From the NCBI RefSeq assembly GCF_002571385.2, contig NW_019218306.1, positions 75,538-135,135 on the forward strand: a stretch of DNA of 59,598 bases. Reading direction: 5' to 3'. Below are positions 6,346 to 58,900 of this stretch, in pieces. The DNA is from Stylophora pistillata. Taxonomy: Eukaryota. Each line of letters starts with the position of its first letter. Position 1 is the first letter of the stretch. Position numbers and translations under genes: made by a program. The notes under the pieces are model-generated. The model was not told the origin of the DNA. It did not search any database and saw nothing but the letters and a program-made list of their open reading frames with translations.

Positions 6346-9300
6346 TCACTTAGTTTTAAATTCAAAACACACAAAATCAACAAACGCATCTTGACTAAAA
6401 TTCTCCCAGCCTTTCAGTTGGACGGTTGGAACTTCAAGGTATTGCGGTTTGACTTTTCCACCAATAACCTTCTTTCTCTGTCGGATCATGTGAAAGTAAA
6501 GTTGCGGGAAGACTGAAATTCAAGCGAATATTTATCATTTGTCAGCTTAAGAAATTTTTGTTTCTTTATTGTTTTATTATTATTTTTTTTTTTATAAGAC
6601 ATTTCACGGCAAATTCGTCAGATTCCCAACAACCCATACGGGTTTTGAACAGTTTCATTCCATAAACTGTGGTCATAGTCTACCGATGTGGAATCCTGCG
6701 CGCTTGTCTTGCGTGAAAAGGTGAAACTCTTTTGGCCAAAATTCCAAACCAACTAAAATTTGCCTTTCCTCCAAACTTGTAGCTTTCTATCTCTGCTTGT
6801 AGGTAGTAGAGCAGGACTGGGCCCAGTTGTATGTGAACGGCGGATAACGTAGCCTGAGTATCAGGCGTTTCTGGGAGCGTTTCTGGGGAAAGGGGTAAGA
6901 GAGAAGCGAGAAAGGGAGAGAGCGAAAGGAAGAAACTTCCTTTCTCTTCTCCCCCTCCCCTAGCCCCTTAGGAAGGCCTGACACTCAGGCTACGGATAAC
7001 GTTTTCCAACGGATAAATCGCTGTCAAGGGGACAAGTGAGAGCAAAACGTACTGCGGGGCCTGGTATCTAGGGGACAAGAGTTCAATCCCTATCAGAGCC
7101 TGAATTTTTTTTTTTTAATATTATTATTTTAGGCTTCCATTTCTACAATTGTCTTCGCTGGCGTCTAATTGAAAATTAAGTCTCCTACACAGTCGTTCCA
7201 GGCCAGCAGTCATTCATTACATTGTTACCCCAAGGGGGGGAACATTCAAATGAACGAAAATCACGCAACGCTCATCCTAAAAGAGGGACTTTCACCTCGA
7301 AAGAGGGTCATGCGTCGGTCATGCTTGAGAACGGCTCTCACGTGACGCTCACATTTAAAAAGGGCCAACATCCCGAAACGACTGTCGCGCAACGCGCGCC
7401 TTAGAGAAAAGGTACAAAGGAGAGGACCTAAGCACGGTGAGTCCAGTATTGAAAATCACTCCAAAATTTAAGTGTATCGACATTGAGACACTTACTTGGA
7501 ATATAAGAGAACATCACCACCATTAGGAAGAGATGAAAATCAAAGGAAAAATTGAGACGATTTGGCATGGACACACTGTACAGACCAGACTTGGAAACAT
7601 AACCAAGAGAGGAGTATATTGTCACCAGCTCACCCTGAAAGCAACAATATCAGCGATTAGCATCTAACTAAGAAAATCTTGGTATGTGAACACATTCTCC
7701 TCGTCAGCACCTTAGAAAATGTTTAGAGAACAGTATAGAGAATATAGATGGCCATGTTAGAGTGCATAGGGTCAACTGATAGTTGTACAGTTGAATGATG
7801 TTAGTTACACAAATGATCCGAACAAGACAAGTAACTTCCTAGAAAAATCTTTACTTCCTCTTAAATTAGAACTTTATTACTACTTACTGTCACGCCAATG
7901 GGATAAAGGAAATAAAAGAAAGTATATCTGTGAAAAGAGCCAACAAAAACATGTTTTAGTTTCAGCCACTTAAATAATTACGGAATTTCAATAGAGAATA
8001 CAATTTAGCACGATGCAAGCAAAGGAAAACCAATGCACTCTCAGATGATCTCAGATTTACTTCAACCGGCAGTTGAAGATGCCCCCTGAACTGCCTATGT
8101 TTTGCAGTTTCTTCTTCTTTATGGGCTTGTCAAACAAATGACGAGAAACTTTTTGCGATAAATCCTAACCAACTGACTGTTAATCTTTTAATCCCTATGA
8201 GTGACTGGCTTTTAATTATTCCTTTAAGTATCTATCTTTAATTTAATGTACAGGTCACGAGAATTAAGGCAATGATCATCAATTTGAGAAGTTTTTGATC
8301 GTCAAAAAAATTCTTCTTGCCAGCACCATAAGAACAGTAAAAAGAACACTGTGAAGATTATGAATACTAAAGTTAGGGAGTAGAGGGTGACAAACCTGCA
8401 CCACTGAAGTATGTACGGCAACTTGTCCAACAATGAAAATGCATAAAATGAATAGCGAATAACCTCCGTGATGGACCAAGCAAAAATGAACCCTGCCACG
8501 CCAGCATTGTCATGAACCTAGAGCAAAGAAACACAAAAAATCTAACTAATGAAATATTAGTAACCTCTGAAGCAAATATATTGACCCACATTATCCCACA
8601 ACAACTCAAACTGATATCTGTTGATGTATAGTCTGTTTATACCATCTCATGTCACTGTTTAATCCAACCTCAAAATGACTGGGGAATGGAACCAGTTAGG
8701 GCATTTAGGTTAGGGGAGAAAATGTCAATTTGTTCTTATCAATTGAGTAGATAAATAAATATAAATTGGCCTCTGCAACAAGGTTTTAAAGCTGAAGTTT
8801 GGAGCCTTCGCCCTTCATCAAAACAAATATAGGAAATCTTCTTGGAGCTAAAAAACAAAACTAGCTACTTGGCAGTGGGGCATATGCATGAAATAATAAT
8901 ACCCAAAGCTCTAAGCACACCAAATCAGTGCTATCGTGAAGATTTGATGAATACTTACTTGAGGGACACTGTGAGCCACTGCCCAGGTTAAAAAGAGTCT
9001 TGAAGCTACTTGAAATGCTGTAATAACAACTGAAGATGGCACTAGACCTACAAGTGGGAAAAAAAGAATGCCACTGAAAGTAAATTTGAACTATTAAACC
9101 CTCTATAAATGTGCACGATATTTCAGCTTAAAAACAAGTTTAGGTTGAAGCCTTTATTTAGAGCCTATACCAGAGTTTGTGGCTATATTTTTTGTTTTTT
9201 GTCATTATTTAGACCCTGATTATTCTCTGTAAATTGTACCATAAGATTAAAGCTATACCAACTGCAAACGGGGAACATGTTTCTCATACTAAACAAAGTA

Positions 9301-24789: not shown

Positions 24790-27700
24790 TCAGCATCTGG
24801 GAAAGAGAAAGAGAGAAGAGTTTGATCACTCAGTGAAACATGAATAATAACAAACAATGACTAGTATTTATAATGATCAACGCACTAAACATAATTATTC
24901 CAGTTACTGTATCTTGTAGAGTGTGATACCTACATGAAGGTAGATATGAGAGAGGTATTTTTAGTGGCGGCCAGACTGAAGTCATAATCACCTGACTCTC
25001 TCACCCTTTAATTTCCTTGGGTTGTCAAAATGTTTACCACAACAACTAACAGCATTCCTTTTCGGGGACTGCTACCATCTGGGAAATTTCATGCAACAGT
25101 CAACCATTCAAAGAATTTTGTGCAGGATTTTAAGTCTGTTTGTGGCTGCTAAATCATACAACACAATTGTTCCAGTCAGCTATTGATGGAGAAAGGCTAC
25201 TGTACTTCTAACAGCCCCTATGGGTACTGGAACATTTAACAAATAGATTCCAAGTTGCCTGCACATCTGTCTCTATGATCTGTCTTCCAACAGATCATAA
25301 ATAAGTGCCAATCAAAATGTGTGTGTAATTCAGCTTAGCGATATATTCAAGTTCCATGATCACAAAAAAATAAAAATCCTTGATCAGCCACCTAAAATGT
25401 TTTAAAATTTAAGGAATACCAAGGTCTAGAATCAAACAGCATGTAATAAAAATAACAAACTCACTGTGATATTTTGAGCTTTGCAGGGGGGTCACCCTTA
25501 CAACCAGACACCTTCCATTTGTGGTATTCCTCCAGCTTTTTATTAGATGTATTTTTGTTATTGTTGGATGCTTGTGTGTTATTATTAGTTTGGTGAATAA
25601 ATGAATCAGTTTTGCTTATGGGTTGAGTGCCTGTCTTGTGATGCACTCCAGAGTTGATGTCCACTCTCCTTCTGTCTGCAGGCATAGACTCTGTCCTCTG
25701 AATGGTTGTTGCCCCCCTGTGTGTGTTTTCATTAGAAGGCATATCACTTTCCTTTGAAAACCTCTGAAAAAAGTTTGACTCCCCAGGCAAAGGTGACAAT
25801 TCCTCTCCTGCAACAAAGCATCATACTCGTGCATTTAATTTGTTTTAAATATCAAGCAAAAGAGCCAAATATCTAGAAGTTGGTAAGTTAAAAAAAAAAA
25901 AAAAATCAAGTTCAAGTTTCCCTTTGCTTAACAAAAACCAAAACCTTGAGCTATGCAGGATTTTTTAATCACCTCCTGTTGTGATCGAAAAATTAAAAGA
26001 AAAAAAATTTGGAGTCTATAAGTGCTTGCAATTTGCTGCAGGGTAAAATAAAAGGCCTGAAAAAGGCAAAAAAGAAGACTAGTTATGCTTATCCTGCAGG
26101 CAAAGGTAAAATTTCAGCTTGCTTAGTTAGTAGTGATATGAGTCATATCTGGACCTACCAGTTGATACATTGATAATACTATCAGGGGTGAAGGTCCACA
26201 TGTCGTCTTTGTCACGTTTAGGATCACTACCACCACTGTCTTTCACATCACACACTTCAGAAAATCTGTCCCATTTGTTTCTGTTTAATGATAACCGCAC
26301 TGCATCAGACTCATCAAAACTTTCCCAATCCTGCAGCTGAACATTGCTTGAAGACGACTGCCGTGTCACCCTGTCAAACTTCTCACATGGGTCTATGTTG
26401 TTAATATTGCTGAAGTTTGTCGCTCTCCGTAGACTACCAAGACCATATGATTCTTTATCTGTTAATGTAGGAACATCATAATCTGAAAGGCTAACATGTC
26501 CAGCAACAATTGCACCAAAGTCATCAAAGTAAGAAGTACCACGAGTGGTCAAATCACTCAAGTGTCGCCGAGGTTGCTTCCTGACACGTCGTACAGGCAT
26601 ATCATCCACAAATCCAGATTCAACCAAACCGTAATCCGAGTTCTCTAAAGGATCAGCGTAGCCAGATATGTCTCCGACAGCACCTAGTGACTGAAGGTCT
26701 GATTCTTGTTCTCTAGCTGAAGTGCAGTCAAGCTCCAAGGCAAGATGGTCCCTCTCTGCCTGCAGCGATGCTATTGTGGCATCAGAATCAACTAGCTGCC
26801 ATTCCAAGTTTGAAATGTGTTTGTCCTTCTCCAATAACTTTAATTGTAGTGCATCCACCTGTCAATGAAAACCAAAATGAACAAGAATCACAAATCAGTT
26901 GATCAGTATGATGGTCCATCTGCCTGTCCATCCCCCCCACAATAGTCTTTTAGTCAGTTTGTCTATTAGCCAGACAGTCAGTCAATTAGTCTACAACTTA
27001 AGTCAGTCAATTCTTTTCTGGCTTGGTCAGTCCTGAAGTCAGTCAGTCAGTCAGTCAGTCAGTCAGTCAGTCAGTCAGTCAGTCAGTCAGTCAGTCAGTC
27101 AGTCAGTAAATCACTCTGTTTGGCTATCTATCTGGGAGTCTGTTGGTTAGTTTGTTGCTCAGCCTACCAACTTATCAGCCAGTAAGTTAACCAGTTGTTC
27201 AGTCAGCCAGCTAGTCATTTAGTCACTCAGAAATTCATTCATATTTCATTCATTCCGTCAGTCACTTGTTCAGTCAGCCAGTCAGTCACTCAACTGAGTT
27301 GATAATATAATTGGCCCCCATAAGGATCTCTCAAGCTGACATACAGAGCATTAGCCCTTCATCAGAGCAATCAAGTCCACCACTCATCGCAGTCAGTCAG
27401 TCACTCAACTGAGTTGATAATATAATTGGCCCCCATAAGGAGTCTCTGAAGCTGACATACAGAGCATTAGCCTTCGTCATAGCAACCAAGTCCACCACTC
27501 ATCGCAATCAGTCAGTCACTCAACTGAGTTGATAATATAATTGGCCCCCATAAGGAGTCTCTGAAGCTGACATACAGAGCATTAGCCCTTTGTCATAGCA
27601 ACCAAGTCCACCACTCATCGCAGTCAGTCAGTCAGTCACTCAACTTGAGTTGACAATATAATTGGCCCCCAAAGAAGTCCCTGAAGCTGACATACAGAGC

Positions 27701-29075
27701 ATTAGCCCTTCATCAGAGCAACCAAGTCCACCACTCGTCGCAGTCAGTCACTCAACTGAGTTGATAATATAATTGGCCCCCATAAGGAGTCTCTGAAGCT
27801 GACATACAGAGCATTAGCCCTTCGTCATAGCAACCAAGTCCACCACTCATCGCAATCAGTCAGTCACTCAACTGAGTTGATAATATAATTGGCCCCCAAA
27901 GGAGTCCCTGAAGCTGACATACAGAGCATTGGCCCTTCATCAGAGCAACCAAGTCCACCACTCATCGCAATCAGTCAGTCACTCAACTGAGTTGATAATA
28001 TAATTGGCCCCCAAAGGAGTCCCTGAAGCTGACATACAGAGCATTGGCCCTTCATCAGAGCAACCAAGTCCACCACTCATCGCAATCAGTCAGTCACTCA
28101 ACTGAGTTGATAATATAATTGGCCCCCAAAGGAGTCTCTGAAGCTGACATACAGAGCATTGGCCCTTCATCAGAGCAACCAAGTCCACCACTCATCGCAA
28201 CAGTCAGTGACTCAAGAGTTGATAAATATGTAAATTAGTTATCATGAAGCTGAAGTAACTAGCATTAGCCCTTCATCATAGCAACTAAGTCAGCCATTTA
28301 TCCTCTCGGTCAGCCTGTTGGTCAGAGCAACTGAATCAGTCATTCATCTTGTTGGTCAGTCAGTTGGTCATTTCATCAGTGACTCAGTTATAATGCTTAT
28401 TAATGTCTCAATTTGATGATTGTTTTGTCTTCATGATGAATGTAACATACCTTGGCATCTGCTTCCAACTTTTTTTGATACACTTGATCAGAATCAAAAA
28501 TTTCCTTTAATAAGCCTGACGAATGACTCAAATCTGCGACAGATAAATATAAAAAAGTGAAATAAAAATCCTCTGAATGCCATAAAATCAAACAAAACAC
28601 TCAAGTTGATTCTTTCAAGAATGTTTTGACTCTAGCTTCCCATTCGACGGTTCTAATGAGTGAGATTACTATAACTTCTAATTTAGCACTGCTTAAAATT
28701 TCATGATATGCAATGCTACTCATGAAATAATGTGATGATAAATCTGATATTCATTGATGAAGAAAAAAAAACATTTTTTTTACCTTTGTCAGTTGCATTC
28801 TGGGATGACAACAATTGTATATTTAATTTCCTTAGCTTGCTAATGTCTTCTTGCAGTTTTTCTTTGAAAAGTTGATTTTCTTTCTCTTTCTCAATTAACA
28901 ACTGATCAACTGCGGCTTTGTCTGAGACTAGCTTTTCACAGTGCAACTGAAGTTGCTCAATTTGTGCCCGAAGACTGTCATAGGAGTCAAGAATCTCTTC
29001 TAATGCTTCTTCACCAAATAAGTCCAGCTCACGCGGAGTATCACGTTGTGACAACTCTTGAGCAGATGAATCCAT
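24790..29075 (-). CDS. Uncharacterised protein (~474 aa): N-terminal coiled coil and long disordered S/D-rich region
   Basis: Exons 28784-29075, 28451-28533, 26159-26858, 25465-25807 join in frame with GT-AG. A probable 7-nt terminal coding segment at 24790-24796 gives ...KLKISQC*. An in-frame stop upstream of ATG 29075 fixes the start. Candidate 5' UTR donors lie near 30336 and 30616. Confidence 0.8.
27037..27106. repeat. (CAGT)n microsatellite with degenerate flanks
   Basis: About 17 perfect agtc units. Similar degenerate tracts occur at 26950-27290, 28290-28390 and 55700-55960. Confidence 0.95.
27281..28295. repeat. Tandem array, ~115 bp unit x 8 plus one degenerate unit, derived from the hammerhead-bearing Penelope-like repeat
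   Basis: Units start at ctcaactgag: 27289, 27404, 27519, 27639, 27751, 27867, 27982, 28097, (28211). Each contains aattggcc...aagctgacatacagagcattagcccttcatcagagc plus a short (CAGT)n linker. Confidence 0.95.
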
Positions 29076-36275: not shown

Positions 36276-36591
36276 TTTCCAACGAAATGAGCATCGAACT
36301 CTAATCAAAATACATCTCAAGGTCTTCCAGGTAACATTTACATCCGCACTGTTAATAAATGTGTTAATCCTTCTTGTTAAGGCTTGTTTTGTTGCTTTTT
36401 ACGGACAGAATCCTCATAAATGTTCACTTTAATGCAAAACTTTGGCCAAGGCGGTCCAAAACAACAAGGCGTAATATTGCGGTATCCCATGAATCCTCTG
36501 TAGATTTGTCGTTCCCAGACTCCCCTCGATCCAGTATCCAAGATGGCGGATAGTTAATGAAGAAAAGTGTTATGAGTTAATCACGATCAAA
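36276..36591. promoter_or_regulatory. Bidirectional promoter shared by ZDHHC6 and LIG4
   Basis: Divergent ATGs only 316 bp apart; YY1-type motif CAAGATGGCGG at 36539-36549 and AAAATGGCGG at the LIG4 start. Confidence 0.75.
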
Positions 36592-39500
36592 ATGGCGGGA
36601 GTTTCATCCGCAGAAGTAGCAACTCAGGTTCCGTTTTATGATGTATGTGCTCTGTTAGAAAAGATAGCAGGCACAACAGGAACTGAAAAGAAGAAGAGAA
36701 TCTTGGCATCATTTGTTAAATCGTGGAGAGAAGCGCACGCTAAGTTGCATGGAACTTCGAAAACAGCTGAGTATATGTTGCATTGCTTGCTGTTAAATCT
36801 GACCTTCTTATATACCATTTGAGAATAAATTTTCTTTTGCCTGAGGGACTTTTATCTTCATATATACCTTTGATTACTACTGCGTCATGCATGTAGCATT
36901 TAACTTCTCCTTGATTATTATAACGATACATTACTCAACAAATGGATTGAGTGAAAACTTTATTTTAGCACGATAAGTAAAATCAGCATTGCTGGTGGGG
37001 TCGTGGTATGATAAGAATTAATTTACGAACATATCACCAAGCACAGTGGCTATTATGATGAAACATCTCTTATCCAGCCCTTCCCCAACTACTCCTCCCT
37101 TACCAATAATATTATTTCAGATCCTGGTTCCCCAGAGAAGGGCAATGGCATACCTAATATGGAGGGCAATGGCATACCTAATATGGAGGGTAATAGCATA
37201 CCTAATATGGAGGTTGGGGGAATAGCAATCAACTCTGGCTCACCTGCAGTTAGTTTGTACAATAAATTTATTTTATTTCTTCTGTCTCAGACTGACTCAT
37301 TCCACTCTGGTATGCGCCTGTTGCTTCCTCATCTTGACAAAGAACGAGGAGCTTATGGGATGAAGGAGGTTGGCATAGATGTGATTTTATTGAGTTTAAT
37401 CAGCAATAAATAAAAATAATAAATTAAAATTTCTGTAGTGCAAGAATTATAGGGAGATGCTTTCTTGCACTTTACAATCTTACAATCAGCAATGATATTA
37501 TAATCGTGCTTTACAATCAGCATTAATATTATAGTTTTAAAAGTTAAAATATATAACCCATAAAACTACATTAACTCCAAACTAGATAGAACTATTTGAT
37601 CAAAGTTCTTAAACCTTTTGACTGTTAAGAGTTTGTACATTATCTGCACAACAAACTGCATTAGGTAATTTATTCCATAACGCTGGCACAGCCACACTAA
37701 AACTACATTCACCAACTGTGCATAGAATAGTAGCATAGGTAAACTATTGATTTTTAAAAAATATTCCTTTTTTTTTCAGTAGCTTGACAGAGACTAAGGT
37801 CTTTTTAATTATTCAAAAACTACTCTTATTAATAAAGTTTTTTCCTTTTAATCGTAGGTTGTTCTTGCAAAATATTATATTGAAATATTAAGTATTGGGA
37901 AGGACTCTGCTGATGGCCGTAAACTGCTGAATTACAGAGCACCCAAAAATGTTAAACAGGTACAATACTTACACAGAGAAATTTATTCAACAAATAAAGT
38001 CTCTTGCTTGATTACTAATACTTACTTAATTACCTGCTAATTTTAATCTACAAAATGAGTTGAACACAGTCTTCCGGAGTCTTATTTCTTCTCTGCCATG
38101 TTTTCCTTTCTCAAAGTATAATAATTATTTATGATGGTCTCTGTAGCATTAATGCAAATAAAAGGTTGGATAGGTTGTTATGATCTATCAGAGGTAACCC
38201 TCATTCTCCGGGCCCCTGAATAATTTTTCTAGTTTCCTTGAAAGTCTACTTATACCTGCCTATTCACCTGGTTATTGAGAGTGACTGTTTAAGCAAACTG
38301 TCCCATCTCTACACAAAGTACATCACATGACTTGGTACAGATCTTTTATACCTGCCTATTCACTTGGTTATCGAGAGTGACTGTTTAAGCAAACTGTCCC
38401 AGGTCTAAACAAAGTGCATGACATGACCTGGCACAGATCTCTTGACCTGCAGTCAAACCATTTGGTGGCCAGGTCTCCCTTTTACTAAGGTTAGGGCAAA
38501 GTAGATGTCTGTAGTAGATTTAAAATCAAAATATTTTAGTTACCCTTGCTTTTCTCATCATGTAGGATTCTGTGGCTGATTTTGCAAGTGTTGCTTACTT
38601 TGTTTTGAGAAATAGATGTCCTGAAAAAGGAAGGTAAATGCTTTTTATACAATTCATCTTTCAAAATCTACATAAATCTGATTTTAATTTTCCCCACTAG
38701 AGGCTGAAAATTTCCTTTTAAACTGATTAAAATAATTTTGTTTTCAAATAAGTACCCTTTCCACTTCGTAAATGTGGTTTTTCTGTTAACCTGTCAGCAG
38801 AATTTTATTCTTGGAATTTTTGCCAAATGTCATTTATTTTTTGAAAGTTACAAGTTTATAGGTATTAGTATATGACCAATAGGCTCTCTGCAAATTAAAT
38901 CAAGACAATTATTATGGTGAAAAAATCAAATGGATACAATTATAGGATGATGTTTCAACTTATTGGGCAGTTTTTTCCCTTAGTCAGTAAATTACTGATT
39001 GGAGTTGAACATCTTGAAATACTCAGTTTAAAGATTGACCAAGTAAACAAGTACCTTGACCAGCTCGCCTCTGCAAATATTGATCATAAACGTGATGAAG
39101 CCAAGAAAGCTTTGCAGTTACTGCTACGTAACACAAGTGCTCTGGAACAGGTCTGTACGGTTTTTTTTATTTTGTATTAACATTTTGTGGTATCATTCAC
39201 TAGATGTCTATATTCAACATTAAACATTAGATTCTGGTAGATAACAGGGGTTAATTTTCTCATACAGAAATGGTTAATCAGGATAATTTTCAAGGTAAGT
39301 TTTGCTTTATCTGCCATAAATATGTCAATTAGATGACAGGATGATAATTAACAATTATTAGATGGGGTTCAGCATGATAGTGATAACTATGAAGGCAAAA
39401 GTTTGTGTTATCTGATGAAGCTGAAGGCTGAAGCAGATAACACAAACTTAAGCCTCGATAATCATCACCGTCATGTGAAAACGGAATCCAATAATTGTTT

Positions 39501-39872
39501 TATTATGCATATTCCTGAGCTGCACTTGTAAAGACAAAAGAGTGCATAAAATTGTTGTCTGTAGGTATGATGTTACTTGTACGTAAATAAAATCTTTTGT
39601 CTGTAGTTATGACCTAAGAGAATGTCTAATAACAATGATTTATTGCCCTTTACACCCTAACTGTAGTACTTAGCAGATTCTCCATACTGTTCTCTTTACA
39701 TATCCTTGGGTGTCAGAAGGGAGAATTTGTTCAACAATCCAGAGCATCTTAAAGAGTGTGATCATTTTCTTTATTCTCCCAATCTTTTATGTTTGATTCA
39801 GGGGTCACGTTGTAAAAAGGAATAAGGTGCTAGTCTCTCTAAGAGGTCAAAGGTAACTTAAACTATTAGAAT

Positions 39873-39903
<31 letters not shown>

Positions 39904-42900
39904 AATTAATAATTGATCATTATTATTAATAATTGCAATTTTATTTTACACAATCATTGCATTTGCCAGGAACTGAAGATTGGCCTCAGTGAGAACTCTG
40001 TATTTAATGTTTATCATCCAGATGCAATGGAACTGTTTGGAGTCTGTAACAGTCTACCCAAGGTTTGATGAAATAATTTATTCTAAATTCATTGGTAAAT
40101 TTTACTGTTTTTGGTGGAAATTAGTGTTGCTTTTAGGTTTTCATATTGAGTTTCACAGGATTTTGTGGATTTTATTTTATCTATCAAAGCCTCGGTAAAA
40201 ATAAATTTATAAGTTTTCAAACTTGCCAAAACTAAGATTGAAAACTTTCGCGAATTCTTTTCTATAAAATGCAATTAACCAATGTCCTTAAATCTCCAAG
40301 AACTTTTGAAAGGTAAATGCTTGACCCTTTCCACCCTAACATCAGAATACATATTCTCCATACTGTTCTCTACACATCTTATAAGGTCCTGACAAGGAGA
40401 ATTTGTTTTAAAAATCAAAACCTTCTTTAGCTGGTGATTATTTCCCTTTTTCTCATGACCTCAATGTGTGATTTAGGGGTGACTTTTAAGGAGAAATTAT
40501 GATGTACGATGCCATTCCAAACATTTTGTATCTCTAGAGGCAAAAGTTCTTTTAGTGTAGTAGAAGTTAATTTCAACTTTAAAGTATTAATTTGACCATA
40601 GTTAATTATGAAAAATTTGTTTGAAAGGTTTGTTTGGATCTTCATGATCCCAGCATTAGAATGAATGAAGCAGAGATGTCTTTGTTCTCACCATTTCGAC
40701 CAATGTTAGCTGAAAGAAAACACATCAGTGAGGCTAGTAAATCTATATTTTGTTTTCTTTGCAGTAGATTATCCATAATCACATTTCATTTGAATTACAA
40801 TTGTTTATGTTTGTGTGTTAGTTGCAGCTAGTAGACGTATTATTTTCTAAGGAAGGGGGTAACAATTCAAAAGGCTGAGAAACCCAAGGCGCTTTTTGTG
40901 TAAATGTAGCTCAGCAGAATTTATGATGATTTCTTTTGAGATTTTCTTCCTCATTGTGTCTATTCATAGGTGGAGAACGTAATGAACAATCAGTCATTTT
41001 ATATAGAAACCAAAATAGATGGTGAGAGAATGCAGCTTCATAAAGACAAAGACAGTTTTATGTACTTCTCAAGAAGGTACTAGTGTTTAAGTTCAACAGT
41101 TACAATTATTATTTTTTCTTATCTGCAAATCCCAAGAAAAACGTTTCACAAGACACAGCATTGTTTAAGACTTACTGATAGGTCCAGGTTGAAGTCTGTA
41201 CTTGGACTAACGTGCATGCATTTTGAAGCATGTTTAGGATTCTGAAACATGAGGTGATCAGGAGTTTTGCTCCTCCCTCCTCTCCCCCTCCCCCCTCCTT
41301 GGATGAGGTGTGGATGTTATCCCCATGCGTTTGAGTGTTTTCCATTACAGTTCAATAATACTGTAGCTCATTTATGTTGCAGGGTGAAACAAATAGTATT
41401 TCTATCATTTGACAAATTATACTGAATAAGGTGAAAGACATCTCATTTCCATGTTAACAAATTAAAATGTGAAGTTAAAGTGAGTCACAACAGTTGTATG
41501 CTAATTATGAAGGCATTATAATAAAATTATTATCAGTGAAAGCAGGTCCATATTGAGGAAAGAATTAGTAACATGGATTTTAAGTTGCTTTGAAAACTTA
41601 AAATGTACTGATCAATTTATTTTAATATATTTAATTTACAGTGCAAATGAATACACTCATGTATTTGGTGCAAACTCATCCTCTGGAGTTCTTACACCTC
41701 ACATTGCTGGTTGCTTCTCAAGGTATTTACAAATCTCTCACATTTCTTAGAATGTTCTCTGCAACTTGATACACTCTATCACTTGTAACAAGTTGCTAGC
41801 ATAAGGTAAACAGTTTAACAGAAGTTTCCTCTTGCAGAGATCAGATGTCTCCAAAATCAAACACTAGTGTATAAAAACACATACTGGTGTGAAATCAGAC
41901 ACCAGTGTTTGTAATCAGACACTAGTGTCTAAAATCAAACACTAGCATCCAAACTTGGACACTAGTTTCTTAAATTGGAGAGATCAGATATCTAACGTTG
42001 CTGCATTGTGAGTGACTCAAGTGTGGTCTTATATTAAATAATTGCAGAGTCTGATATTCTCTGTAATGTTAATTGATTTGTCAACATGTAGCTCTGTACA
42101 TTCATGTATCCTGGATGGAGAAATGGTTGTTATTGATCCAAAGACAGACACATGGCTGTAAGTTTAACTTTCCATAATTTTTTTCCTTATTTTGAATCCT
42201 TTTGTCCTTATCCCTTTTATTCCTTTTCTTTACTCTTTGTCTTCCTTTCTCTCTTGTTTGTGTTTTACTTACTTCCTCATTCATTTTCTTCTGTCCCTTC
42301 ATTGTGTTATCTTTGTATCCTTCCTTTTGCTTGTCTTCTTCTCTTTCCTGACTTCCCCCTCACTTGACTGTTCTCTCTTCCTTTTTTCCTTTCTATTTCC
42401 TTTCCTCTGCTATCATTTCTTGTAAACAATATCACTAAATTATAGACTAGACACCATATATGACCTGAACCAAATTCGGAATTTACTTTTGTTCATTTTA
42501 GGTCTAAGGGAATGAATGTTGATGTGAAATCCTTAACCGCTTATGAAAACGGTAAAGTAATAATGTCCTTCCAATGTTCGATGTAGAGAGTAATATTACC
42601 ATTATACTGCATTAAGTCTTGTAATGAGGTCAGATTGATTTGGGAACATAAGGTCGTCTAAAACTTACACGTGGATTTGCTGTGATCACTTGTGAATTTC
42701 TCGTCTTTGTCATTTTAGATCAAGGTCTTCACCCTTGCTTCATTGTGTTTGATATCCTAATCATAAACGATAAAAAACTGGCAAATGTTCCTTTGAATGA
42801 AAGAATCAAATCCATGGAAAAGTGAGTACATGTCAGTCACATGACTTTACATTTCAATTATTTGTGAGTTTCTTTGTACTGGTTGTATATAATGAAGTGT

Positions 42901-44008
42901 TGTTTGGGCAATGTTTGGCATATTTGATGAATTTGGTTTTTTTTTTTTTTTGTTATATGTTTTGCATGTTCTTCTAAATTTGTTGTAGAATGCTGAAGCC
43001 GAAGCCTGGATATCTTCAGTTTGTTGAGAGACAAGAAGCCATTTCTAAGTATGTATAATAGAACTGTATATAAAATAGTAAAAGCTAAAAGTTTGGAAGA
43101 TATTCCAACTTAATATCATACAGCACAACCAAAGTAATCTCAACAACCAATCAGAAATAATGAAAGTATCCCAAGAAACTAAGGAACTCTCGAAAAAAAA
43201 AAATTTATTTCAGTTGGGGGTAGTTTTGCCTCTGATTGGTTGAGAAAATTTTGCGAGATTTCTGAACCAATCGCTTGTCAAAGTAAAGCAAAACTGAACG
43301 GATTGAAAACACTCAGATTAGAATTCCTCCATTATTGACAAAGAGACTTTGTTTTCTTTGTAGTGAAGACGTGGTGAAAGCTCTTAACTCTGCAATTGAC
43401 AAGAGGGAAGAAGGCTTGGTTGTGAAGTCACCATCCTCTGTTTATAAACCAAACTCAAGAAGTGGTATGTGCATAACTGATTGCTGTGCATTTACATTGA
43501 TTTATTGTGAACTAGCTTACTTGACATTGTTCGTTATTCCAATTGCCTCTGTTTCCTGTGTACAACAGGCAGTGGCTGGGTGAAGATTAAACCAGAATAT
43601 GTCGACAGCCTCAGTGATGAGGTATGTTTTATTTCTAGCCTGATCATTATTGTTATAATTGTAATTTATTATCATTATTATCTTTATTTCATCATTATCG
43701 TTATCGTGATAGTCCTCGTTATCATCTATATCGTCATTGTCATCGTTTATCATTATACGGCAGTTCATACATCTAGATGCCCAAAATAAAAACAAGACTA
43801 TAGCTGTGGCTGGGTGATAAGCCATGGCCAGCCACAGCATCGACTAAGATCCATATATACAATTAAAAATAGAAATGAGTGAAAATAATTAAAGGAATTT
43901 GTAAATACTGTGAATGTCTTAATGTTCAATAATGTTCTATGGAAATCAATTCTAGTTCCACTGTTCATATGTAATATCTAGTGACTCAGCTTAAATGTCT
44001 ATTATTAC

Positions 44009-55900: not shown

Positions 55901-58900
55901 ATCATACAGACATACAGTAGACCAGTCAGACACTTAGTGAGTGAATCAGTTAATTATTCACATTAGTAACCTACCTGTCCAGTCCCCAGCGATTCGAATA
56001 TGTACAGAGAAGAAATCATCCTCAGGGGCCTAGGAGCAAAGGAAATGTTCGTGGTGTTCTGTTAGTACAGTACACACAATATGGGCGCCTACTTCTATAC
56101 GTGTTATCTGTATTATTTATGAACTGGACATCTAGTGACAGGAGGCAAAACGACGCTAAGCGTAAATATTCTCCCTGGGTTCGAACTTTCTTAACAACCG
56201 ACCCGTAGTAGAACACGTTGCTATGTAAACAGCATCAATATACAGTACAATAAGTAACAAAAAAAATAATAATATTTTTTTTATCAAAGGAGTATTTTAT
56301 CTTCAAAACATCTGCTTAGAGTTCTGTGTAGTATTTACTCACCGATGTCAAAGTGAAAGGATGCCACTCCAAATGAGAGAGTTTGGGACACTTCAGAAAA
56401 ATGTACTGGAATAAAATAGGAAAAAACGAACAGCTCATTTATCTGAGCCATTAGCTCTTTGATAATTATGTAAATGTAAAATTTATCATATTGCGTTGTC
56501 TTTTTGTAAGAAATACGTCCTCGCAGAGAGCAGCTCGGTAAAACTGCCAATGATTACCCCTCTCTATGAAGTAATCTCCGCTGAAAAAGAAATTCGAAAA
56601 AATGATTCAAGTACAAAAAAAACTAATATACCTGTCCAGCATCATGATGGAAGCCAGCTTTCTTCATCTGGATCTCGATAACTCTAGATGGATGGTTAAC
56701 TACCTACATGACAGTTAATATCAGTCACTATTAGCTCGCTGTCATTTGATTGAGGAATTCTCAAATTGAATGTGATAAACTCCTAACTGTACATGTGAAA
56801 GCAGCTACAATAACCAATCACAAAAAAGATAAACAGTAAAATAATATTAATGCCTAAATTTGATGAGCCTTCTGACGGAACTCCAGTTGGTTTAATTAAA
56901 GTGCCTTTCTCATTATGAGAATTTGAACAGGCTACTTATCTATTCATAATTTGGTAATATCAACTAGGTTGAAATTATAAATTGGCCACCGTAAAGGCTT
57001 AAAAAGCTGACGTTTCGAGCGTTAGCCCTTCGTCAGAGCGAAGTTTCTTTAGAAACTTATCCCCTTTAAACTTATCTATTCGCCTATGTGTATTGTCTTG
57101 TGTTGCATCCATAATCAGATTGTTCCGCATATAAAATATGGCTTTTCGTCCGCATGAAATGAGGACCATCGCATGAAAACCAAAGTGTCATGTTATAACG
57201 GATACCTTATTTAATTGAATATGAGGCTCCGCTGGCGAGATTTTAACGCATGAGTTATAGAAATGATATCAGTCGGATACACAAAGACATCTGTTTCCAG
57301 ACGTTCATAGAAAATATCAAATAGCAGGAAACCGGTCGAGCTTACTTTCATAATTTTAACTGTCTGGAATGAGCGATAAAATCTGATTCCACGTTCAACG
57401 AGGTACAGGAACATTGGTCCAGCAACCCACTTCCAGGTCTGTAAGAGAAAATAATTGTTAGTTTAAAAGGAATGATGTTCAATTTTGCGCGTGCTCATCG
57501 AATCAAGAAACATTTTTACGTATTTATCGAAACAGTGTAACACAAAAAACTGGGTCTACTCTGCTAAATTGAATCTCAGACTTTCTGATTTCGCGTTTGG
57601 ATACTCTGACAACTGAGCGATAAAGAAGTTGTAGATGATAAAGCCATTTACAAGTAACATTCTACTAATAGGATCGTAAAATCTATGACTGTGACTTTAT
57701 CTTTCGTCACACCAGACAAATTCGAAATCGATCAACCTATCAGCATGCTAATGGATGGCCTGGCTCGCCACAAATCCCCTGTTTTTCACTGGTAGAGCTT
57801 CAGTAGAGCAGTAGCAGTAATCTGACGGTAATGGACTAGATTCTCTCATATCTTCTATGTCTTGTCTCTTTCACTTTACTGTTTTACAATATACTTAGGG
57901 AGATGTTTGTGAAAAATTAACGATAAAGGTAGATTTAATAATAATAAGCGTGGTAAAGGATGTGGCTTACTGCGAGTTTCAGACTTCCCTTAGTTTACCC
58001 ACTCGCAAAAATCTTGTTTGAATATCATTAAGTAATTGTAAATCTTAGGCGATCACCATAATTTGATGACTACGAACAAAATAGTTAACCCCTTCTCCCA
58101 AAAGAGCTGCTTCTACGACTACTCCCTCAATGGCAATTGAACTCACACATCCCAAGCAAAAGTTGACAGTGAATAAACACACGACTGAGTCACTCACATT
58201 CATTCCAAAAGGAACAAATTTGGGAAGTGCTTTGCAATCTCCCTCCTTGCCCCACATGGTCAAATTTTTGTGGCAGATTTCAGGGTCATGTTCATCAATG
58301 TTCTGCTGAAATCGTACCACACCCCTAGAGAGAATAAATATCTGTTAGTACTAGAGAGGTGTTTTTTTTTTTTTCGCGAGCGGTGGGCAGATATTGGAGA
58401 ACGATCTGTCGGCGTTATAGAAAGGTCCAGGATCGAGCCACACCCATACCCATCCATACTCTAACAATTTATCTTCTACTATTAGAGATACCTGAGCAGA
58501 CATCTGTGACTCATCACTGCATACCAAACAATTAGTTTAACAAAAGATACTCAACGGAAGTTCTTATATATTTTTCAATAAAATGCTATTTTATTCAATT
58601 TTATTCAGTTCAGGAAAAACTGGAGGGTACCGAGCAGGATCGCGGCGGAATCTTTTGCGGGAATGAATTGCGGGAATCTAGCTGCGGTTAGGCAAGGATT
58701 GCAGCGTGGTCCTGGCTGCAGTCCTGGAGGAAATACCTTCGGGATTAACCTTAACGGGTAATTCTATCAAAGAGCACACCACACTGGTCAATATACTTAC
58801 TGTATTCCATGAACAACCAGTCCAATGTAGAAGATCACAAACAGATGATGGTTATACCAAAACACTTCAAAATACGACCGCCTGTAAAGAAGAAAGAACT

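Follow-up and report, generated by a model that had tools for sequence, protein, structure and literature searches.

What is a hammerhead-like motif doing in a head-to-tail array inside a coral intron: is it a mobile ribozyme, a working ribozyme with an unusual core, or a repeat that merely descends from one? The question is raised by a tandem array in a 59,598-nucleotide stretch of the Stylophora pistillata genome (assembly GCF_002571385.2, contig NW_019218306.1, positions 75,538 to 135,135), which is called the window below and supplies the coordinates used here. An earlier note on this DNA, made from its letters alone, had described the array as retrozyme-like. Our analysis found a head-to-tail array with a unit of transposon origin at one locus, and suggests that it is very probably an intronic, transposon-derived minisatellite, or variable number tandem repeat (VNTR), whose hammerhead is predicted to be dead and which likely grew when the (CAGT)n tracts on either side slipped or underwent unequal exchange.

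The host gene lies on the minus strand, and its three exons join in a single open frame. The splice from 28449 to the next exon was observed in raw RNA reads of two of three runs and in contigs of a fourth run, and a Pfam scan of the host gene gave nothing beyond weak, sub-threshold matches of coiled-coil type. Tandem Repeats Finder (TRF) described the array as 8.2 copies of a 115-bp period with 93% matches (score 1610), and splitting it at CACTCAACT gave eight units (u1 to u8) of 112-120 bp each. Every unit is made of ~80 bp of Penelope-like end and ~33 bp of local DNA with (CAGT)1-3. In u8, the hammerhead remnant occupies 28176-28143, with UGUAU at 28153-28149, and is followed by the downstream segment of the family up to UCAACUCAGUUGA. 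On the minus strand, GCUC-UGUAU-GUC-AGC is common to all eight units, UGUAU standing where the family has GAAAC. CUGAUGA is intact in five of them (u1, u4, u6, u7 and u8) and starts with A, not C, in the other three; the loop of stem II reads UAAU in the first five units (u1-u5) but CAAU in the last three (u6-u8), and u2 is missing one G of stem II. The junctions between units are bounded by CAGT in variable number, and the variants are mosaic across units. Mean pairwise substitution was 6.0% among 12 units, namely the eight of the array and four of the five units of a scaffold, C2826, that is considered below. No open reading frame (ORF) of at least 60 amino acids was listed within the array, which has no reverse transcriptase-endonuclease ORF of its own. 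Cryptic CAGT-rich DNA flanks it on both sides, with 29 CAGT per kb at 27110-27280 and 50 at 28300-28400 versus 4.9 window-wide. These observations bear out the anatomy given in the earlier note: the exon frame, the GT..AG ends and the RNA splice reads place the array in an intron of an uncharacterised gene, TRF, unit splitting and the ninth unit (Table 1) agree with eight near-identical ~115-bp units and one decayed one, UGUAU replaces GAAAC in all eight full units, and CUGANGA is kept in five.

The ~80-bp part of the unit matches a dispersed repeat family. Within the window it aligns over ~80 bp (73%, E 3e-6) with the copy at 57006-57039, which carries the intact family motif just as the earlier note had claimed. 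This copy is flanked by exons (57438-57346 and 56703-56632) that join in frame, with a FAD_binding_8 match on the next exon; exons of this NADPH-oxidase-like gene span 56322-57459 on the minus strand. In the 398-Mb assembly, the stem II-to-stem I pattern of the family, with five letters left free, had 6,298 matches, of which 5,657 had GAAAY and 641 did not, and 530 sites matched the full canonical core exactly. In longer copies (our labels L039, L058 and L063) the core is preceded, at a distance of ~100 nt, by an ORF with a C-x4-C-x2-C linker and a GIY-YIG domain (Pfam PF01541, E 1e-4) at its end. The linker of the L058 ORF is upstream of the PF01541 match, which fits the CX2-5CxxC linker before a C-terminal GIY-YIG that has been tied to Neptune elements (10.1101/2021.04.23.441226). 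Judged by these matches, the parent is the pseudo-long terminal repeat (pLTR) hammerhead of a Penelope-like element whose GIY-YIG endonuclease is C-terminal, and that element is likely of the Neptune type. The nearest relatives of the unit belong to a sister subfamily (L015 and L016), the evidence on the parental ORF coming from other copies (L058). L067 and L068 were rejected as full-length parents: no intact reverse transcriptase was recovered from them, the former having an unrelated ORF on the opposite strand and the latter only broken pieces. Naiad was rejected as the parent, since the endonuclease of Naiads is N-terminal and they lack a hammerhead (10.1101/2021.04.23.441226). The proposed descent of the unit from a Penelope-like terminus with a hammerhead is thus supported by ~80 bp of homology to a family end that follows a GIY-YIG ORF. 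An Rfam scan of the window, at E values up to 5, returned no hammerhead or other ribozyme family; Rfam is unable to judge this minimal family, because the intact copy at 57006-57039 escaped the scan as well.

The hammerhead core has been listed as C3 U4 G5 A6 N7 G8 A9, G12 A13 A14 A15.1 and U16.1 H17 in a study in which the natural core variants described are single and mostly compensated and a core mutation disqualifies a hit (PMC3088659). In an ungapped alignment, G12, A13 and A14 are all substituted in the UGUAU core. Shifting the register lets the new U lengthen stem II to 5 bp; G12 and A15.1 then survive, and AA is replaced by a single U. No register retains more than two of G12, A13, A14 and A15.1, and C3 is lost in three of the eight units. 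The stem III duplex, which is needed for dimers, goes from -2.3 kcal/mol (AACGU) to +0.8 kcal/mol (UAUGU). The core of the array is predicted to be inactive because at most two of the four letters from G12 to A15.1 are kept and stem III is weakened. Against 300 dinucleotide shuffles, the monomer fold had z scores of +0.6 (u7) and -0.5 (u1), indicating no stable self-paired structure. GAAA is kept in none of the eight units, and no CUGANGA followed by GAAA occurs on either strand of 27201-28400; an alternative hammerhead built on a different GAAA, or on the plus strand, was therefore rejected for that interval. A narrow literature search for mutational data on G12 or GAAA found no paper. CpG dinucleotides fall from five in the intact 80-mer to none in u7, with an observed-to-expected ratio of 0.23 in the array. 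The CpG losses and the UGUAU change are common to all eight units, which supports the earlier suggestion that one inactivated copy was amplified.

The variant was found at a single locus. A 15-mer containing UGUAU, GCTCTGTATGTCAGC, had 13 exact matches in the assembly, eight in the array and five in C2826, and all matches to a looser core pattern (12 of 12) and to a spacer pattern with up to two mismatches (13 of 13) fell in the array or in C2826. This scaffold has a length of 4.5 kb, more than half of it N, and its non-array part matches window 20997-22086, 5 kb upstream of the array, at 99.8%. We therefore rejected it as a second locus; given this match, it likely represents the array locus itself, in leftover or allelic form. 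The duplication in C2826 also points to assembly collapse or heterozygosity at the array locus. Outside this locus, the best matches reached at most 81% over ~80 bp, apart from one of 85% over 53 bp. The 26-nt variant core had no match in metagenome_contigs, a database that may omit records close to the source genome.

With the reads of all units gathered on one unit, sense depth was 0, 2 and 4 in the three raw-read runs, versus 8-17 on the neighbouring exon; intron DNA had 0-3. No pile-up of read ends within the unit was listed in these runs, of which ~2% each was read and whose libraries were not designed to capture small or circular RNA. The low unit depth fits transcription as pre-mRNA only. 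The earlier note had itself named a single locus without unit-length RNA as the outcome that leaves a plain minisatellite; the array is at a single locus and no enrichment of unit RNA was seen in these runs, and therefore that clause applies. The label retrozyme-like is not supported, the array also having no intact core and no stable fold.

Contig depth, which is a rough guide only, was compared between tandem junctions and flanks. It was ~1,912 versus 94.9 in run X1, ~134-147 versus 6.7 in X3 and 3.8 versus 12.7 in X8, giving junction-to-flank ratios of ~20, ~20 and 0.3. Run X11 shows spliced ends, was treated as RNA and was excluded from the estimate. In the contigs of all four runs, from four studies, no alternative letter was listed at 28149-28153, and on the spacer side the loose contig ends of X1, X3 and X11 consisted solely of CAGT repeats and showed no foreign flank. 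These data suggest ~20 units in X1 and X3 and one or two in X8, all with UGUAU. The array is likely of variable length and may differ in copy number between individuals, and the assembly has probably collapsed it, so that eight units are an undercount. Low- and high-copy runs alike carry UGUAU, and therefore the core likely broke before amplification.

From these observations we infer the following order of events. A truncated pLTR fragment, recognizable by its homology, would have landed in a CAGT-rich intron tract; a microsatellite insertion bias has been reported for Neptune-type Penelope-like elements (10.1101/2021.04.23.441226). The fragment decayed, presumably neutrally, losing its CpGs, perhaps through methylation, and its GAAA box. 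An early duplication would have left the ninth unit, which shares the spacer. The CAGT tracts flanking fragment and spacer may then have mispaired and duplicated the 115-bp unit, and slippage or unequal exchange may have expanded the array and mixed its variants, consistent with the CAGT-bounded junctions and the mosaic distribution of variants. We thus adopt, as a putative mechanism, the seeding by (CAGT)n tracts proposed in the earlier note. The array would be transcribed only within the pre-mRNA and then spliced out, in keeping with the low read depth.

Several points weigh against this account. In the core, three non-CpG changes stand side by side, which exceeds the damage in most decayed copies: the 14 broken cores listed among the first 100 matches to the family pattern had one change, or one change plus a CpG change. 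The RNA evidence comes from ~2% of each raw run, and ordinary paired-end libraries would under-sample a 115-nt RNA or a circle. Go-back joints were seen in two reads each in X23 and X24; they fit tandem DNA or pre-mRNA, and circles would also produce them. Contig depth does not equal copy number; the assembly of X8 is small, with a flank diverged by 2.5%, and possibly from another population or species, and X3 is possibly the assembly's own sample. Finally, all five multi-copy arrays of the family that were examined are in sense introns, and four of the five have some defect, as a model of selection would predict.

In that model, sense-intron arrays of this hammerhead expand only once cleavage has been lost, a dead core being the precondition. 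We consider it unlikely. Direct tandem pairs of the family end with intact GAAACGUC gave 58 matches at 50 other loci, and gene context was examined for four of these, chosen by hand, so that five arrays including the present one were compared (Table 1). Two of the four others, C90 and C1315, have CCGACGA or CAGACGA cores, that is, a changed position 4, and C335 has a canonical core without the 5' strand of stem I and is nested in a larger local duplication. The low-copy run X8 already has UGUAU, and Xenopus retrozymes are reported to be depleted in introns (10.64898/2026.07.22.740005); the same source gives an overlap with introns for 44% of X. tropicalis retrozyme copies, which speaks on the other side. 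CCGACGA was also found in solo copies (C335 position 7200), as a trait of a subfamily would be. Metazoan type I hammerheads of the minimal kind, with their palindromic stem III, are described as dimer-dependent and as cleaving poorly even as dimers (PMC4209133). The array in C336, which contains a 1.7-kb gap, argues against selection: three of its five assembled units have the canonical core, two of them with full stem I too. The earlier note had suggested that inactivity is what lets the array persist in the sense strand of a pre-mRNA. However, an intact solo core sits in a sense intron of the NADPH-oxidase-like gene, and C336 is a sense-intron array with canonical cores; inactivity does not seem to be required for persistence. 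The defects in four of the five arrays leave the model a small opening, but the sample was small and non-random and C336 speaks against it. Three-copy tandems of the family end also occur at C33:524147-524249 and C127:400520-400912, with periods of 44 and 189 bp.

A variant core that is still active would require the shifted register: U pairs the bulged A to give the 5-bp stem II, G still serves as G12, one U takes the place of AA, and A15.1 together with the wobble palindrome AUGU allows a dimeric stem III. The minimum free energy fold of u7 does show a 5-bp stem II, five of eight units retain CUGAUGA, GUC and the 3-bp stem I, and some natural core variants are reported to cleave at low rates (PMC3088659). 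UGUAU moreover shows no variation among the 13 assembled units or across the four runs. Such invariance is expected from recent amplification, however, and the variant is known from one locus only. The count of retained core letters, the loss of C3, the stem III energies and the ninth unit, whose core is broken differently, also speak against activity. We agree with the earlier note in judging an active variant core the less likely reading; we consider it very unlikely. Equally doubtful is its extension, in which a register-shifted core would cleave slowly as a tandem dimer and the array, as a copy-number-variable intronic ribozyme, would tune the yield of host pre-mRNA between coral colonies.

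A fossil or nascent non-LTR (long terminal repeat) retrozyme, formed by reverse transcription of a circular RNA, insertion of the multimer as a tandem and later decay or homogenization, would accord with the proposed origin of non-LTR retrozymes from pLTRs (10.64898/2026.07.22.740005) and with the tandem pairs of the family end that are common in the assembly, but it is highly improbable, being largely refuted by the single locus: the unit contains local DNA found nowhere else, the decay is common to all units and amplification therefore came after core loss, no RNA enrichment was seen in the runs read, the monomer has no stable fold, and Acropora retrozymes are reported to have canonical cores and units of 220-245 nt (PMC7229834).

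Table 1. Positions of the array, its surroundings and related copies (window coordinates, unless a C or L label of ours precedes them)
Feature	Position	Strand	Details
Host intron of an unnamed coiled-coil protein gene	28450-26859	-	1,592 bp as assembled; GT..AG
Host exon upstream of the array intron	28451..28533	-	splice joint 28533-28784 in 4/4 runs; depth ~8-17 in 3 raw-read runs
Tandem array, 8 assembled units	27279..28225	-	plus-strand starts 27287, 27402, 27517, 27637, 27749, 27865, 27980, 28095
Penelope-like pLTR-derived part of unit (u8 as example)	28098..28176	-	73-81% identity to dispersed family copies
Locus-specific spacer and (CAGT)1-3 completing each unit (u8 as example)	28177..28207		non-element origin
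Older, decayed ninth unit	28245-28302	-	79% over 58 bp; core GCUA-GUUAC-UUC; diverged spacer copy
Partial duplication of unit end (46 bp), still older	28276..28370		2.1 copies, 79% (TRF); in CAGT-rich DNA
Perfect (CAGT)17.8 microsatellite	27037..27107		TRF
Reference intact minimal type I hammerhead, solo copy of the unit's family	57006..57039	-	sense, in intron 57345-56704 of NADPH-oxidase-like gene
C336 array, 50-bp unit	C336 ~128200-130200 (L078:3231-5188)	-	sense, intron between two ABC_ATPase exons; GT and AG ends
C335 array, 135-bp unit, 5 identical copies	C335:93341-94017 (L077:842-1518)		sense intron, probable poly(A) polymerase; upstream exon without Pfam confirmation
C90 array, 100-bp unit	L069:5940-6330		UTP20 intron; three copies in sense, two in antisense
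C1315 array, 121-bp unit	L070:4848-5140		probable ion-channel intron, weak Pfam support

Elsewhere in the window, further copies of the family in various states of decay lie at 8757-8826, 14480-14586, 19788-19982 and 21708-21872, three of them as inverted pairs. Three near-identical tRNA genes, one inverted, occupy 13832-14397 (anticodon AGU as read from the Rfam alignment) and are flanked by arms of the Penelope-like end (13659-13694 and 14480-14632). Plus-strand exons at 36493-43789 have a putative resemblance to DNA ligase IV.

By its ~80 bp of homology to the family end, the unit is like the minimal type I hammerhead pLTRs described for Penelope-like elements with a C-terminal GIY-YIG (PMC4209133; 10.1101/2021.04.23.441226). 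In the intact family form, as in those pLTRs, stem I has 3 bp, stem II has 4 bp and is preceded by an extra A, and stem III is a palindromic ACGU; as with them, too, short copies are dispersed by the thousand in this genome, alongside inverted arms and partial tandems. In contrast, the unit of the array lacks the GAAA box, the ORF and the tail, and is fused to local DNA. It shares with reviewed transposon-derived minisatellites the growth of a mobile-element fragment into a head-to-tail array at one site; that review names unequal exchange, microhomology and slippage as mechanisms (PMC9659126). Unlike in the reviewed cases, the source fragment here comes from a pLTR with a hammerhead and lies in an intron of a coral, and a limited, mostly title-level literature search found no description of such a minisatellite. 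Tandem, low-GC, non-coding units with a motif derived from a type I hammerhead and a Penelope-like origin are also reported for non-LTR retrozymes (PMC7229834; 10.64898/2026.07.22.740005). These differ in that the array has no intact cores, one locus, no enriched monomer RNA in the runs read and no stable monomer fold, and in that its parent hammerhead is minimal, not canonical.

The array is thus one more transposon-derived minisatellite, and neither a mobile element nor a ribozyme of a new kind. With ~1-2 to ~20 units, it probably makes a hypervariable marker, one that short-read assembly collapses. A decayed Penelope-like end can mimic the architecture of a retrozyme, and is a source of false positives for tandem-repeat screens for retrozymes that relax the core. 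Whether these ribozymes cut pre-mRNA in vivo is left open in the cited papers. The sense-intron tandem arrays of the minimal hammerhead, one of them with canonical cores, would permit a direct test of such cutting, and the C336 array is the best candidate for it in this genome.

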